Below, piece by piece: positions 25,974-46,826 of a stretch of DNA of 48,351 bases (position 1 is the stretch's first letter; every line of letters starts with the position of its first letter). Under the pieces are notes generated by a model. The model ran no database searches, was not told the DNA's origin, and saw only the letters and a program-made list of their open reading frames with translations. The stretch lies in IMG/VR virus record IMGVR_UViG_2654588181_000001; one strand, written 5' to 3'. A program made the position numbers and the translations under genes. This DNA comes from a virus. Its lineage: Duplodnaviria; Heunggongvirae; Uroviricota; Caudoviricetes.

Positions 25974-26049
25974 TGGTGGCCCCTACCGGATTTGAACCGA
26001 TGACCGTGCGATTATGAGTCGCCTGCTCTAACCACTGAGCTAAGGGGCC
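25974..26049 (-). tRNA. tRNA with CAU anticodon (Ile2/lysidine type or Met), CCA encoded
   Basis: 76-nt cloverleaf: GGCCCCT acceptor stem, D-arm TAGCTCAGTGGTTAGAGCA, anticodon loop CTCATAA, T-loop GGTTCAAATCC, 3' CCA; first ~42 nt match my recollection of E. coli ileX. Confidence 0.8.
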
Positions 26050-36880: not shown

Positions 36881-36903
36881 TAAAAAAGGCCCCCGAAGGG
36901 GCC
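36881..36903 (-). terminator. rho-independent terminator
   Basis: GGCCCC-CGAA-GGGGCC hairpin followed by T-run on minus strand. Confidence 0.5.
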
Positions 36904-36909
36904 TAATCG

Positions 36910-37029
36910 CTACTTGCTGCTAATGTTTATCGTCACATTCAGAGCGTTATCAGTAATCTTCCAACCCTCCCCATGTGGCGTAAACAAAGCTCCAGTAACA
37001 ACGATAAAAATACACATACAGTATTTTTT
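36910..37029 (-). CDS. small hydrophobic peptide (40 aa) with own SD and terminator
   Basis: MKKYCMCIFIVVTGALFTPHGEGW...; AAGGG 8 nt upstream of ATG; terminator immediately downstream. Confidence 0.35.
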   Translation of the reverse strand, partial: KKYCMCIFIVVTGALFTPHGEGWKITDNALNVTINISSK

Positions 37030-37785
37030 CATTGTGTGGCCCTTACAGGCCGTTTCACGGCATCCCCACCGACGAAAACAACGCGAGAGCAAGCACGGCT
37101 GCTTGTGCTTGCATGTACGGCAACAGGAAATCCTCCCCTAAAGTCGGTGCCCGGGTGCGAATCGGCGGGAAGGTCCACAGGTATTTTACGATTATTTTAA
37201 GATTAGTAATAGGAAAGAAATTAAACGAAAAAAACAGTTTATTTTCACAAAATCAGTAACCTACCCACAATCTGTGAGTTTGCTGACACAACAAGAACCA
37301 CAATTTTTTGATGTATAATAGTGGACTATTATTACCTTTTGAGTAAAATCAATTTGCTGCTTGTGCTTGCGTGGTTGTTTATACAACAACGTAATGCTGA
37401 AAGGACCGCGAATCCGATCAGCACGAAAGAACCGTCCTCAATAGGGCGGTTTTTTTGTTTCTGCCTACCAATAAACCCACGCTATGTGGTTGTCTCTGTT
37501 AAAATCCCGCCGTATTGACATGAATGCGCCATTGGTGGACACTTTCCGAGCCGTAGCAAAATCTACGGTCGGGATTAGCCTCCTGAATAACACGATGGCG
37601 CATACCGCGTTAGCGGTTTTTTTATGCGTAGAGCACTGTTACGCCCAAATTATGGTGGGTCGTACAGGGGCGGAGAAATCCGCGCCGGTTCGTCATTGTG
37701 TCCGGTAAGGCTAACCCTGTACGGCTCACCACCATTTGATTAGCCTCGAATGGCGGTGATAGTTCCATATACTGGAGATATCACA

Positions 37786-43229: not shown

Positions 43230-43481
43230 GCGTAAGTTAAATAAAGAAAGTTTTAATAAAAGAAAGTGATTTTGCATTTATTTGTTTAGTGCATCTATTA
43301 TAAAAAACCATTTGCATATACATATCAAAACTGTGGATAACTTTATTAGCCGATGCCTGTAAAGGCGATATTTTTGCTGTGTTCAGGTTTAGAGAAAACT
43401 AATTTAGATTGTTTTTTGAACAGATATTTTATTGCGACGTAGATAATCCTCCGGTAAAACCGGATTCATCATTCAGGTGGG
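43230..43481. other. candidate replication origin (oriR-like) downstream of repA
   Basis: AT-rich; DnaA box TGTGGATAA at 43332..43340, about 140 bp past repA stop. Confidence 0.45.
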
Positions 43482-44330
43482 TTAATGTTGGAGTGATTTC
43501 CAGGTCTTTCTTAACCTGTTATAACGCTGCTCAACGAGGGATCGTAAATATGCAAGGTCAGCTCCAGGATACATGCCATCAGCAAATTCCTGGCTAACCT
43601 CTCTAGTGATTTGATGACGAAGTTCGGCCTCTCCCTTTTCCCGAACAAGACGCGCAGCTCTCTCCGCTGCTTTCTGTTTTGCCTTTATCTCTCTGGCCGT
43701 CTTCCTCTGACGCCATACATTCTCCATCTGCTCCTGAATAACAATACGCTTATAATCAGCCTCCGTTATCGCTTTTTTAAGCCGTTCGCTATTCTTCGCA
43801 TTGAAGTAATTAAGTTTCTGGCTAACCGCACGTCTCCATGCTTGTTCAGTAATACCAACGGTTTCCAGCAGTTGATCACGAATCTCTATTTTCGCTGGCC
43901 AATACTGTTTATTCACCCGATCCCAGCGACGTTCATAATCAATAAAACCTAACGCTTTCAGTTGCGACAACGCCCTTGTACAGCGTGTTATAGACTTGTT
44001 CCCAGCTTCGGATACGGTAGACAGGCCGCAAAAATCAGCCAACGCCTCAGCACTGGCCAGAACCCGCTTAGAAATGATGTTTACATGGTGCAAAATCGCA
44101 GCAATCACAGCATTAATCGCCCGACGACGATGCTCGTTTATCCGACGCTTCCGCTCTGACGGTTGATTAACGTAGAACGCAACCTCACACGTAAGATCAC
44201 GACCATTAATGCGCTGTAAAGCATCAGATAACACCAGCGGCAGCTTGTGCGTATGGTGCTTTGGAGGCTGGAACTCCGGCGACAAATTACAAACGTAAGC
44301 TGAACGTAGAGACGGCATTGGTCTATCCAT
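43482..44330 (-). CDS. repA: plasmid replication initiator, IncFII RepA-family
   Basis: ...GLSTVSEAGNKSITRCTRALSQLKALGFIDYE... resembles IncFII RepA1 core as recalled; start uncertain (TTG 44360, ATG 44330 or 44318). Confidence 0.75.
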   Translation of the reverse strand: MDRPMPSLRSAYVCNLSPEFQPPKHHTHKLPLVLSDALQRINGRDLTCEVAFYVNQPSERKRRINEHRRRAINAVIAAILHHVNIISKRVLASAEALADFCGLSTVSEAGNKSITRCTRALSQLKALGFIDYERRWDRVNKQYWPAKIEIRDQLLETVGITEQAWRRAVSQKLNYFNAKNSERLKKAITEADYKRIVIQEQMENVWRQRKTAREIKAKQKAAERAARLVREKGEAELRHQITREVSQEFADGMYPGADLAYLRSLVEQRYNRLRKTWKSLQH

Positions 44331-44344
44331 ATGTTCGCTCTTGC

Positions 44345-44457
44345 GTCCACGGAAAACCAACGTATAATGGGAGTTGTCGAGGCGCCCATGGTTAATTGGT
44401 TGTTGGTTTTCCGTGGATGTCGCAAGAAGCCCGCAGATTTATCTGCGGGCTTTTTGT
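44345..44457 (+). ncRNA. candidate countertranscript (CopA-like antisense RNA)
   Basis: Plus-strand 15-bp-stem hairpin (44347..44361 / 44403..44417) plus intrinsic terminator GCCCGCAGA-TTTAT-CTGCGGGC-TTTTT (44428..44457), antisense to repA leader. Confidence 0.35.
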
Positions 44458-44644
44458 TTCCATATCTGGTCATTTTCCAACCAGACACCCACAATCATAA
44501 CCACGTTACGTGGTTTTAAGAGAACTCTACCACAACACTTTCGGTCATGCACGAAGTCTCTCACTGATCGAACGATAATCCACCAGTAAAAGGATCTAAA
44601 TTGGATCTCGTTTTGCGAGCATCATACTACTGGCCTAACTCCAG

Positions 44645-45199
44645 TCAATGATTCCCAGCCGGAAACCTGCGGTAAAGCGTGGATAAGGTAACATCGAAGA
44701 TAATCGCTATCCGCTTACGTGAAACACCATTCGCAATAAGCCTTCCGATCTGTTCCCATTGCTCTGGGGCCAATTTTGAGCGGCGTCCTCCTATCCTGCC
44801 ATTAGCCCTTGCCACCGCCAATCCTGCACGCGTTCTTTCAATCATATTTTCCCGCTCCATCTCTGCGACTGCACTCAGCATCGTGTAGGCAAAGCGGCCA
44901 ATTGAAGTGCTAATTTTTATCCCTTCCGTAATCGAAATAAACTCAATGTTGTTTGATAAAAAATGGTTAAGTAAATCAACAAGATGAATCAGAGAACGCC
45001 CCATTCGATCCAGCTTCCAGACAATAACCGTATCGCCCGGCCGTAACACCTTCAGTAGCTTATCAAGCCCTGGTCGTTTTGATTTAGCACCGGATATTTT
45101 ATCTTCAAAAATCCGGTCACATCCTGAACTCCTGAGCGCCTCCAGTTGTAATTCCAAATTCTGGTCAAAAGTTGACACCCTCGCATAACCATATTGCAT
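44645..45199 (-). CDS. serine DNA invertase (Gin/Cin/Pin/Hin family)
   Basis: 184-aa ORF; N-terminal YARVSTFDQ with catalytic Ser, C-terminal HTH; adjacent to inverted repeat. Confidence 0.9.
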   Translation of the reverse strand: MQYGYARVSTFDQNLELQLEALRSSGCDRIFEDKISGAKSKRPGLDKLLKVLRPGDTVIVWKLDRMGRSLIHLVDLLNHFLSNNIEFISITEGIKISTSIGRFAYTMLSAVAEMERENMIERTRAGLAVARANGRIGGRRSKLAPEQWEQIGRLIANGVSRKRIAIIFDVTLSTLYRRFPAGNH

Positions 45200-45272
45200 A
45201 CTTTCTAAACCGCGATTGTTGCTAAAAGCGGGAAAAAATATCGTTTAGACGACACAGAGGCAATTCGCAAAA

Positions 45273-45297
45273 ACCTCGGTTTACAGGAAACGGTAAA
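45273..45297. repeat. inversion crossover site, left inverted repeat
   Basis: ACCTCGGTTTACAGGAAACGGTAAA = exact reverse complement of 48327..48351 and of 1..25. Confidence 0.8.
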
Positions 45298-46297
45298 CAA
45301 GGCTGGTAACGCCGTGCAAAAGACAGGCGATACCTTGTCCGGTGGACTTACTTTTGAAAACGACTCAATTCTTGCATGGATTCGAAATACCGACTGGGCA
45401 AAGATTGGATTTAAAAATGATGCCGACAGCGATACTGATTCATACATGTGGTTTGAAACAGGCGACAACGGCAATGAATATTTCAAATGGAGAAGCAAAC
45501 AAAGCACCACAACAAAAGACCTGATGAATCTTAAATGGGATGCTTTGTCTGTTCTTGTTAAAGCCCTTTTCAGCAGTGAAGTAAAAATATCGACAGTCAA
45601 TGCACTGAGGATATTTAATTCATCTTTTGGTGCCATTTTTCGTCGTTCTGAAGAATGCCTGCATATCATCCCTACACGAGAGAATGAGGGGGAAAATGGT
45701 GATATAGGGCCACTACGCCCCTTTACGCTTAATCTCAGAACAGGTCGCATAACTATGGGGCATGGTCTGGATGTTACAGGAGATATATTTACAAACCGTT
45801 TTTTAATTAACAGCAGTACAGGCATGTGGATTCATATGCGTGACCAGAACGTTATTATGGGACGTAATGCGGTATCCACTGATGGTGCTCAGGCATTGCT
45901 TCGTCAGGACCATGCCGACCGCAAGTTCATGATAGGTGGATTGGGAAATAAGCAATTTGGCATCTACATGATTAATAACTCAAGGACAGCCAATGGCACC
46001 GATGGTCAGGCGTACATGGATAATAACGGGAATTGGCTTTGCGGCTCGCAAGTTATTCCCGGCAACTATGGCAATTTTGATTCCAGATATGTGAAAGATG
46101 TTCGACTTGGTTCACAGCAATATTATGGAGTGAACAACTGGCAAACATGGAATTTCCAGTGCCCGTCAGGTCATGTATTGTCTGGTATTAATGTTCAGGA
46201 TACAGGGTCCAACTCTGCCGATAATATAGCGGGCGTTTATTACAGACCCGTTCAAAAGTATATAAATGGCACCTGGTATAATGTAGCGAGCGTTTAA
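45273..46297 (+). CDS. alternative tail-fibre C-terminal cassette (silent in this orientation)
   Basis: Open frame through the left repeat (…[25 protein letters not shown]…) with no upstream start; becomes fused to the constant part after inversion. Confidence 0.7.
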
Positions 46298-46298
46298 T

Positions 46299-46826
46299 AT
46301 GATGCACTTAAAGAACATAAAAGCGGGTAACGCTAAAACACTGGAACAGTATGAGTTAACAAAGAAACACGGAGTTATCTGGCTTTACTCTGAGGACGGA
46401 AAAAACTGGTATGAGGAAGTGAAAAACTTTCAGCCAGACACAATAAAGATTGTTTACGATGCAAATAATATTATTGTCGCCATCACTAAAGATGCCTCCA
46501 CGCTTAACCCTGAAGGTTTTAGCGTCGTTGAGATTCCCGATATAACAGCCAATCGTCGTGCCGATGATTCAGGAAAGTGGATGTTTAAGGATGGAGCTGT
46601 AGTTAAACGGATTTATACGGCAGACGAACAGCAACAACAGGCCGAATCACAAAAGGCTGCGTTACTTTCCGAAGCTGAATCAGTCATCCAGCCGCTGGAA
46701 CGTGCTGTCAGGCTGAATATGGCAACAGACGAGGAACGCACACGACTGGAAGCATGGGAACGCTACAGTGTTCTGGTCAGCCGTGTGGATACGGCAAAGC
46801 CAGAATGGCCACAAAAACCAGAGTAA
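46299..46826 (+). CDS. tail fibre assembly chaperone (silent-orientation copy)
   Basis: 175-aa [17 protein letters not shown]...; paralog of 46854..47387. Confidence 0.75.

Follow-up and report, generated by a model that had tools for sequence, protein, structure and literature searches.

The repA leader and its putative antisense RNA gene

The sequence analyzed here is the IMG/VR record IMGVR_UViG_2654588181_000001, which in its whole length of 48,351 nucleotides (nt) is referred to as the window and which represents a ~48-kb myovirus-type phage-plasmid. Its replication initiator gene, repA, lies on the minus strand at 43482-44330, and the product matches the Pfam family IncFII_repA (PF02387) with an E value of 8e-44, covering residues 9 to 275 of 282 amino acids (aa). 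A candidate promoter of the repA mRNA, TTGACT-16-TATGAT (44621-44648, minus strand), was found by promoter scan, is kept in the relatives L010, L017, and L022, and would give a leader of ~285 nt. This leader contains, on the plus strand, the promoter, recognition hairpin, and intrinsic terminator of a putative antisense RNA gene and, on the minus strand, a long hairpin predicted for the mRNA itself. A sequence-only reading of the window had proposed at this place a CopA-like countertranscript of 90 to 110 nt, which comprised both the long hairpin and the terminator and controlled repA translation through a leader peptide.

Relatives were gathered through RepA homology, a conserved 21-mer, and annotated plasmid and phage records, and yielded 26 distinct 220-nt cassettes. 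Clade A comprised the Escherichia coli type together with L010, L011, and L022 (RepA 81 to 85% identical) and L017 (62%); in clade B, RepA was ~59 to 60% identical to that of the window; and L016, with a RepA 63% identical and a differently organized leader, formed a third clade. When genome contigs were scanned with a profile of the RepA alignment, the sole hit was an irrelevant Streptomyces locus. Clades A and B were handled separately, since hairpin I, described below, could not be aligned between them in a joint alignment.

The antisense promoter consisted of a -35 element, TTGCGT (44341-44346, plus strand), 16 nt upstream of a -10 element of perfect consensus, TATAAT (44363-44368, plus strand). 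TATAAT was invariant in all 26 distinct cassettes, drawn from two clades, though the flanking stems wholly differ between these clades. The -35 element was TTGCGT in clade A and TTGCAT in clade B, 16 to 18 nt upstream of TATAAT, and L016 carried TTGAAA-16-TATAAT at the equivalent site. The -10 element stood at the beginning of the loop of the long hairpin, and the plus-strand 5' arm of that hairpin formed the promoter spacer. Because this conserved promoter lies inside the long hairpin, the antisense RNA would begin in the hairpin loop and carry one arm only, a start that the sequence makes probable.

The intrinsic terminator (hairpin II; 44422-44459, plus strand) had a stem of GCCCGCAGA (44429-44437) and TCTGCGGGC (44442-44450), a TTTA loop, and the U-tract TTTTT (44451-44455). 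It had been recognized in the sequence-only reading with coordinates 1 to 2 nt off (44428-44457 instead of 44429-44455). Its core, a 9-bp stem with a 4-nt loop, included three pairs that covary across the two clades, and the U-tract was present on the plus strand only, the mRNA sense reading CUUCUUGCG there. The terminator was visible by RNAfold and in two weak Rfam terminator-type alignments, and a simple terminator scan did not list it. The antisense promoter was likewise missed by scan; both elements were established by reading, folding, and conservation.

With the 5' end placed 4 to 8 nt past the -10 element (7 nt for the relatives) and the 3' end in the U-run, the predicted antisense RNA occupied 44372-44458 of the plus strand, its 5' end falling at 44372-44376 and its 3' end at ~44455-44459, for a length of ~80 to 87 nt (about 83). 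The predicted RNAs of all 26 relatives measured 79 to 87 nt and folded into a single-stranded 5' tail, hairpin I, and the terminator. In a 9-row clade-A alignment of the antisense RNA, 100% of the cells were paired, compared with 43 to 52% when partners were slid, and three pairs showed double-sided changes. Hairpin I itself (44381-44421, plus strand), found by folding, has the form GGCG.CCAUGG, loop, CCGUGG.UGUC, with compensatory changes in two pairs. It contained two to six G-U pairs, several of them invariant, and in each of the 20 distinct sequences compared the antisense version was more stable than the sense version (-11.5 to -15.3 versus -4.1 to -9.6 kcal/mol). The strand asymmetries, namely, the G-U pairs of hairpin I and the plus-only U-tract, are the best substitute that the sequence offers for transcript data.

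The 5' tail, (G)GGAGUUGUCGAGGC (44369-44391; UGUCGA... in the RNA), was invariant in all 26 cassettes and predicted to be single-stranded, and its complement lies in the loop of the mRNA hairpin; it could be a pairing toehold or a site for a protein or chaperone, or it could be constrained as the initial transcribed sequence. The possibility that the plus-strand RNA codes for a small protein was considered and rejected, as loop indels disrupt the frame and there is no stop codon ahead of the terminator.

The region 44340-44462 folded at -68 kcal/mol, compared with -33.8 +/- 3.5 kcal/mol for 200 dinucleotide shuffles (z = -9.67), and no shuffle equaled it. Of the two structures that the sequence-only reading had given to the countertranscript, the terminator would belong to the antisense RNA and the long hairpin to the repA mRNA on the minus strand. 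The predicted transcript is accordingly shorter than the 90 to 110 nt first proposed. The conserved promoter, the strand-specific G-U pairs, the plus-only U-tract, and the hypervariable loop described below nevertheless bear out the proposal that the repA leader encodes a plus-strand countertranscript ending at the terminator, and it is highly probable, judging from these features, that such an antisense RNA exists and represses repA.

The opposite position would be that there is no regulatory antisense RNA and that the hairpins act only in cis, for example, as an invertase terminator and an mRNA-stabilizing or -attenuating hairpin, with TATAAT kept for RNA structure. Consistent with this position are the weak -35 element and a terminator stem that could fold in minus-strand RNA too. 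However, the cassette goes with repA, not with the invertase gene, as the genes upstream of it in L011, L013, and L020 are different ones; the terminator hairpin has no U-tract in its minus-strand version; hairpin I depends on G-U pairs on the plus strand only; hypervariability is confined to one loop; and related RepA genes (R100 and L016) have recognized antisense RNAs at the same place. A purely cis-acting role is thus hardly credible.

A long hairpin predicted for the repA mRNA

The long hairpin is built on an inverted repeat in which CCACGGAAAACCAAC (44347-44361) and GTTGGTTTTCCGTGG (44402-44416) are exact reverse complements; on the plus strand, counting G-U pairs lengthens the stem to 20 bp (44343-44362/44401-44420). 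This is the 15-bp repeat noticed in the sequence-only reading, but with the second arm at 44402-44416 and not, one position off, at 44403-44417. Since the segment 44361-44346, the 3' arm in the mRNA sense, lies upstream of the antisense start, both arms occur only on the minus-strand transcript, and the hairpin would be an mRNA structure. On that strand it spans 44338-44428, with a 5' arm (44417-44402) that would be the antisense target, and consists of a 16-bp helix and a 7- to 8-bp outer helix (44428-44421 with 44345-44338), with a 3-nt bulge between them. Its loop of 38 to 41 nt exposes the variable stretch and the complement of the antisense 5' tail.

The long hairpin was conserved in related replicons. 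Across the five clade-A lineages, 95.3% of the alignment cells were paired, compared with 30 to 43% in slid controls, and three pairs showed double-sided compensatory changes; clade B had a long hairpin of the same design with an unrelated stem sequence.

A hypervariable loop in hairpin I

The apical loop of hairpin I contained a hypervariable segment (44392-44401), for which the window allele is TTAATTGGTT, or AACCAATTAA in the mRNA sense. Between GGAAAACCAAC and CCATGG, nine alleles of 6 to 11 nt were found among the E. coli-type elements, and the adjacent 950 nt (downstream of the loop) in the same elements showed 0.2 to 1.6% divergence from the window and zero indels. In the mRNA sense, the alleles were that of the window, AACAACAAT, AACAAT, AATTAA, AACTAA, AACAATAT, AAACATAT, AAAACAAT, and, as the ninth, AACTAA after a GGAAA duplication in the adjoining 5' arm. 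Clade B had another hypervariable stretch, which again coincided with the predicted apical loop of hairpin I.

Loop differences define incompatibility between R1 and R100 and among the I-complex plasmids. The hypervariable loop is probably, on the pattern of its variation, the incompatibility or specificity determinant of the present replicon as well, deciding which related plasmids coexist. Part of the variation lay in AAC copy number, the segment reading CCAAC(AAC)nAAT, with n = 0 to 2, in the mRNA sense (44392-44401; L027, L029, L034, and others), which points to slipped-strand mutation as the origin of some of the new specificity alleles.

Leader open reading frames and the start of RepA

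No conserved leader open reading frame (ORF) was found across the lineages compared; the candidates had no Shine-Dalgarno sequence, lost their ATG, or extended as far as +325 nt beyond the repA start. Allele lengths of 6, 8, 9, 10, and 11 nt also excluded any reading frame passing through the loop. The minus-strand ORF overlapping the repA start, to which the sequence-only reading had assigned the role of leader peptide, does exist (44138-44494; beginning ATGGGC), but the role could not be upheld: the ORF has no Shine-Dalgarno sequence, its ATG is lost in L022, and its end varies from +26 to +178 nt past the RepA start. A second candidate, the METK ORF (44463-44392), was rejected both as a leader peptide and as the start of RepA (as annotated by PGAP, 326 aa), its ATG being absent from L010, L011, L017, and L022. 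A copB (repA2) repressor gene was likewise not found in the ~285-nt leader between the invertase stop (44645) and repA, where there were only nonconserved ORFs of <=25 aa.

The start of RepA is best read from its homologs. At 58 to 85% identity, these were mostly 277 aa long (range, 274 to 284) and had the N terminus M(P/I/S)LRS, and the real start of RepA in the window is therefore taken to be either ATG 44330 (MDRPMPSLRS) or ATG 44318 (MPSLRS), both on the minus strand, the latter being the start common to the homologs. In contrast, the RefSeq/PGAP annotation gives RepA 325 to 326 aa from the METK ATG (protein cluster P0001, 525 member sequences; for example, L001 3083-4063 and L003 1210-2187), which adds an N-terminal extension of 43 to 44 codons running through the antisense RNA gene (window 44331-44463, minus strand). 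The METK ORF of the window stops after 23 codons. Because this ORF is fused to repA only in loop alleles that keep the frame, the 325/326-aa RefSeq "RepA" is probably a systematic start-site misannotation.

Rfam models were searched over the whole window at the gathering threshold (60 bits for CopA, RF00042; 45 bits for PK-repBA) and over 44100-44700, both strands, at an E value of <=10. In the latter interval, no CopA, PK-repBA, or PK-repZ match appeared, the only hits being spurious ones of terminator type (Thr_leader and CsrC). In the positive control, R100, CopA scored 106.3 bits and tap overlapped repA; L016 scored 34.3 bits with CopA, which is below the threshold. The description of the RNA as CopA-like was therefore not sustained.

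These results also bear on the arrangement that the sequence-only reading had favored, in which a CopA-like RNA of ~110 nt has its start upstream of 44343, includes the terminator as well as the complete long hairpin, and blocks translation of a tap-like leader peptide coupled to repA. The very stable fold of 44340-44462, with its two hairpins, fits such an RNA, as do the R1/R100-type replicons of the same RepA superfamily, which work in this way, and the G-U pair that the long stem has, when read in the plus orientation, in some clade-B variants. Nonetheless, the hairpin has no promoter-like site upstream of it on the plus strand (the promoter scan reported no plus-strand site near the hairpin, and its sole plus-strand hit lay ~400 nt upstream, inside repA), and the perfect, universally conserved TATAAT is inside it. 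A loop of 38 to 41 nt is atypical of a recognition hairpin, and the hypervariable stretch becomes apical only if the RNA starts at the internal promoter. With no conserved leader ORF, loop alleles that break frames, and no Rfam CopA match, this arrangement is very unlikely.

Proposed sequestration of the RepA start region by arm exchange

The 3' arm of the long hairpin has a second predicted partner. When freed, it can pair with CAUAUGG and AGACCAAUG to form an alternative "sequestor" hairpin (44316-44362, minus strand) that lies over both candidate start codons, 44330 and 44318. This hairpin had a predicted energy of -19.0 kcal/mol in the window (z = -3.0), and its architecture, with the segment from the 3' arm to the AUG folded alone, was common to all five clade-A lineages (z = -2.6 to -4.1). 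The outer helix pairs CGUUGG(U/A)UU with bases that abut or include the RepA AUG, the middle helix pairs C(C/U)GUGG with CAU(AU)GG, and the top is closed by a small CGC-AAGA-GCG cap. In clade B, the same topology was seen; there, the pairing of CCUGGCU with AGG(C/U)(C/U)AGG covers the Shine-Dalgarno sequence that serves the downstream ORF.

The start-region partner proved to repeat the 5' arm imperfectly. In the window, GGAUAGACCAAU corresponds to GGAAAACCAAC of the 5' arm, and in L022, GAAUUCAAC corresponds to GAAUCCAAC. In L011 and L022, position 7 of the arm is A in place of U, and its two partners, in the 5' arm and in the start-region copy, have changed with it. Pairing of the 3' arm with the start region gave a duplex more stable than its shuffles in seven of seven cases (z = -2.4 to -4.25). 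The predicted energies of the long hairpin, -25 to -45 kcal/mol, exceed those of the sequestor, -14 to -20 kcal/mol, implying that the "on" state is the default.

Nine leaders were then folded with the antisense-covered stretch forced to be single-stranded, and the probability of being unpaired was averaged over positions -15 to +5 of the conserved AUG. With this stretch blocked, the released 3' arm re-paired with the start region in nine of nine leaders, and the probability of being unpaired near the start dropped in all nine (in the window, from 0.57 to 0.27-0.30). Blocking the 3' arm as well brought accessibility fully back in eight of the nine.

From this folding and from the three-way covariation, the following mechanism is proposed. 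A constitutive sigma-70 promoter on the plus strand (44341-44368) would drive the ~83-nt RNA, from ~44375 to ~44455, which would be fully complementary to the middle of the ~285-nt repA leader and would display a large, U/G-rich loop in hairpin I. Without the antisense RNA, the 5' arm of the mRNA would hold the 3' arm in the 16+7-bp hairpin and the RepA start region would be accessible. The hypervariable loop, and possibly the 5' tail too, would nucleate pairing with a single-stranded A/C-rich stretch in the loop of the long mRNA hairpin, so that the loop sequence would set specificity, that is, incompatibility. The antisense RNA would then invade the 5' arm, and the released 3' arm (CGUUGGUUUUCCGUGG) would pair with the imperfect 5'-arm copy (CAUAUGG...AGACCAAUG), a pairing that would span both candidate RepA start codons and block translation initiation. 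Neither a leader peptide nor a CopB-type repressor would be involved in the clade. It is rather likely that the cassette provides copy-number and incompatibility control for the IncFII_repA-family replicon of the phage-plasmid through an antisense RNA and exchange of arms; the modeled sequestration step as such is put forward tentatively, its chances being somewhat short of even.

A simpler possibility is an antisense RNA without a structural switch, where the ~80-bp duplex is cut by RNase III or otherwise destabilizes the repA mRNA and the long hairpin merely presents the loop or stabilizes the leader. In cis-antisense systems generally, full complementarity over ~80 nt would make a substrate for RNase III, and complementarity of just this extent is predicted here. 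Moreover, the duplex stops 45 nt short of the first AUG, which makes a direct steric block unlikely and decay the simplest alternative, and the constrained fold of the window is less clean than those of its relatives. Decay, however, leaves unexplained why the start codons are overlain by an imperfect copy of the 5' arm whose covariation with the 3' arm recurs in clade B and in independent lineages, and why the 3' arm, which is outside the antisense RNA, has been kept perfectly complementary to the target arm. Regulation through decay alone is accordingly judged unlikely.

Several observations weigh against the arm-exchange model or parts of it. The whole case rests on sequence, conservation, and thermodynamic prediction. 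The promoter TTGCGT-16-TATAAT was missed by the promoter scan, and its -35 element has only three of the six consensus bases. For the long hairpin, the evidence from G-U pairs as to strand is mixed, with one U-G pair (in L010) favoring the mRNA and one C.A mismatch in some clade-B sequences favoring the other strand. The sequestor had weak z values in two clade-B members (-0.8 and -1.9), and the long hairpin of L022 is weak, with the sequestor prevailing even in the fold made without constraints. In the window itself, accessibility recovered only in part, to 0.42, when the 3' arm was also blocked, and the constrained minimum-free-energy structure paired the freed arm partly with downstream coding sequence and not in the local hairpin. 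Finally, neither the start codon of RepA nor its Shine-Dalgarno sequence can be assigned with certainty; of the lineages compared, the window and L017 have the upstream AUG in frame, and L010, L011, and L022 have it out of frame.

Clade B differed in having an ORF of 158 to 162 aa between the antisense cassette and repA (L021 2016-2504, L019 112-588, L013, L020, and others). This ORF has a good Shine-Dalgarno sequence, an ATGA overlap with the repA start, and weak winged-helix Pfam matches, and one member has a weak IncFII_repA match. In this clade, the antisense toggle would control the 158- to 162-aa ORF, with RepA translationally coupled to it.

Comparison with known antisense-controlled replicons

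The CopA/CopT-tap-CopB system of R1 and R100 (RF00042) shares several traits with the cassette of the window: an initiator of the same Pfam family, IncFII_repA; an antisense gene, putative in the window, that lies within the repA leader and is read away from the repA start from a promoter close upstream of it; an antisense RNA of 80 to 90 nt with two stem-loops and a U-tail; and an oriR with a DnaA box downstream of repA, for which the window has a candidate by sequence. In contrast, the RepA of R100 is only 40% identical over 97 aa to that of the window, which has neither copB nor the 24-aa tap whose stop overlaps the repA start. In CopA, stem-loop II serves as both recognition element and terminator, whereas the window has a separate recognition hairpin and terminator, and control in R1/R100 blocks translation of a leader peptide, whereas sequestration of the ribosome-binding site (RBS) by arm exchange is the mode suggested for the window.

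The closest phylogenetic neighbors are the IncB (pMU720), IncI-alpha (ColIb-P9), IncK/Z, and IncL/M replicons (RF01089 and RF01087). The leader of L016 (2363-2500) is of the classical IncB type and passes the Rfam PK-repBA model with 49.3 bits. Its antisense RNA is a single hairpin with a CGCCAA loop, made from the TTGAAA-16-TATAAT promoter; its leader peptide has 15 aa and a UGA that overlaps the GUG start of repA; and two HTH_3 genes lie upstream. The window resembles the IncB/I type in that the antisense -10 element is at the equivalent place, in a ...GGAUUAUA... block, and in that sequence beside the start codon would join a long-range RNA pairing. Unlike the IncB/I-type leaders, that of the window matches neither Rfam model, has no leader peptide and no UUGGCG/CGCCAA loop motif, and contains the 16+7-bp hairpin enclosing the antisense promoter together with the competing sequestor helix, while a pseudoknot has weak support.

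Under an IncB/IncI-alpha-style scheme, the same ~83-nt RNA would act by preventing a pseudoknot between the loop (CCAUGG) and the RepA start that activates translation. Such a scheme may be ancestral, given the PK-repBA score of L016 (above the 45-bit threshold) and its 15-aa leader peptide, and the loop (AU)CCAUGG can pair with CAUAUGGAU; in L011, the loop-to-distal duplex was strong (-20.3 kcal/mol, z = -4.0). In six of seven cases, however, this duplex was no better than its shuffles (z = +1.0 to -1.5). The loop alleles have no covarying partner, the start region being invariant among the E. coli-type elements, and, besides the missing PK-repBA and PK-repZ matches, there is no leader peptide that could open structure III. 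Pseudoknot control is consequently improbable for the window.

Sequestration of the kind suggested for the arm-exchange model has a parallel in the staphylococcal plasmid pSK41. According to a review (PMC5703833), pSK41 makes an antisense RNA, RNAI, which is ~83 nt long, consists of a 5' tail followed by two stem-loops, and has been proposed to act by inducing a stem-loop in which the RBS is sequestered. The logic suggested for the window is the same. The two differ in their initiators (RepA_N versus IncFII_repA) and in the Gram-positive host of pSK41, and there is no sequence similarity; the likeness is one of mechanism, predicted for the window by computation only, and not homology. To judge by the title of a 2006 study by Kwong et al. 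that the review cites, RNAI of pSK41 is also said to attenuate transcription.

On these comparisons of sequence, the cassette is a derived design within the IncB/I/FII superfamily, outside the curated RNA families, and would be an unannotated variant of antisense copy-number control in which the type of regulator is the expected one and the construction is unusual. That it represents a new antisense RNA family, in which an ancestral IncB/I-type leader peptide and pseudoknot were replaced by an all-RNA toggle of target arm, sequestor arm, and start-codon decoy, is possible but doubtful. If true, an antisense promoter would be embedded in a toggle hairpin with a loop that diversifies fast, partly by (AAC)n microsatellite slippage, and a temperate phage-plasmid lineage would gain a specificity for incompatibility or superinfection that evolves rapidly and is comparable to immunity types. 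Among the relatives compared, one RepA lineage has changed between control architectures, namely, an IncB-like pseudoknot with leader peptide, the predicted toggle hairpin, and a toggle with an extra upstream ORF, and has kept the antisense promoter block throughout.

Distribution of the element

The repA region of the window was 98.6 to 99.3% identical to those of ~47- to 50-kb E. coli plasmids, including the 48,488-bp plasmid of ATCC 25922, and it also matched Yersinia phages vB_YpM_39, 41, and 44. The structural half of the window matched vB_YpM_39/41/44 as well as Escherichia phage vB_EcoM-613R2. Among 5,426 complete E. coli genomes, 71 (~1.3%) carried the leader, which was plasmid-borne in all of them, with one record per genome, and the annotation over the leader was only "repA" or "recombinase." No co-resident loop alleles, which would be a natural compatibility test, occurred among these 71 records in 71 genomes. 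In NZ_CP032086.1, a 94,204-bp record from an ATCC 25922 assembly, the leader was present twice, which probably reflects dimerization of the 48.5-kb plasmid or its duplication in the assembly. Literature searches yielded nothing specific on the replicon control of this phage-plasmid; pSLy3 is a different element, of the SSU5 supergroup. An element that is present in a reference strain and forms infectious virions has an unannotated replication control; the control RNA and its specificity loop would predict which phage-plasmids of the family can coexist and would explain how copy number is set, and in practice they would offer a compact, tunable antisense-and-toggle module.

Other features of the replicon and its surroundings

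A candidate oriR was located downstream of repA (43230-43340, minus strand), where a consensus DnaA box, TTATCCACA (43340-43332), is followed by an AT-rich stretch (23% GC). The box is the single match to TTATCCACA in the window and lies 142 nt past the repA stop, which is the position of oriR in IncFII-type replicons, and the two elements together are likely the oriR.

The upstream half of the repA leader (44499-44650, minus strand) was conserved across clades. Just past the TTGACT-16-TATGAT promoter-like site, it contains two GATC sites in GAGATCCAATTTAGATCC; a possible second promoter of the extended -10 type, TGGTAGAGT, lies at ~44532-44524, and a small covarying hairpin, ACCACG-UAA-CGUGGU, lies at ~44515-44501. 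Control by Dam or SeqA and a second promoter as in R1 are possible roles of these elements.

Directly upstream of the repA promoter is a gene for a Cin/Hin-type serine invertase (44645-45199, minus strand), which abuts tail-fiber and tail-fiber-assembly ORFs of opposite orientation, and the region 44645-46826 looks like an invertible host-range segment. The invertase region varied among relatives, L003, for example, having a transferase gene there. Elsewhere in the window, Rfam matches above threshold were a ryfA-like RNA (36882-37178, 140 bits), a tRNA (25977-26049), and an isrK element (37550-37623, 65.7 bits) adjoining a C4 antisense RNA (37648-37736, 70.8 bits); the isrK-C4 pair suggests an immunity (ant-control) region of the P1/P7 type.

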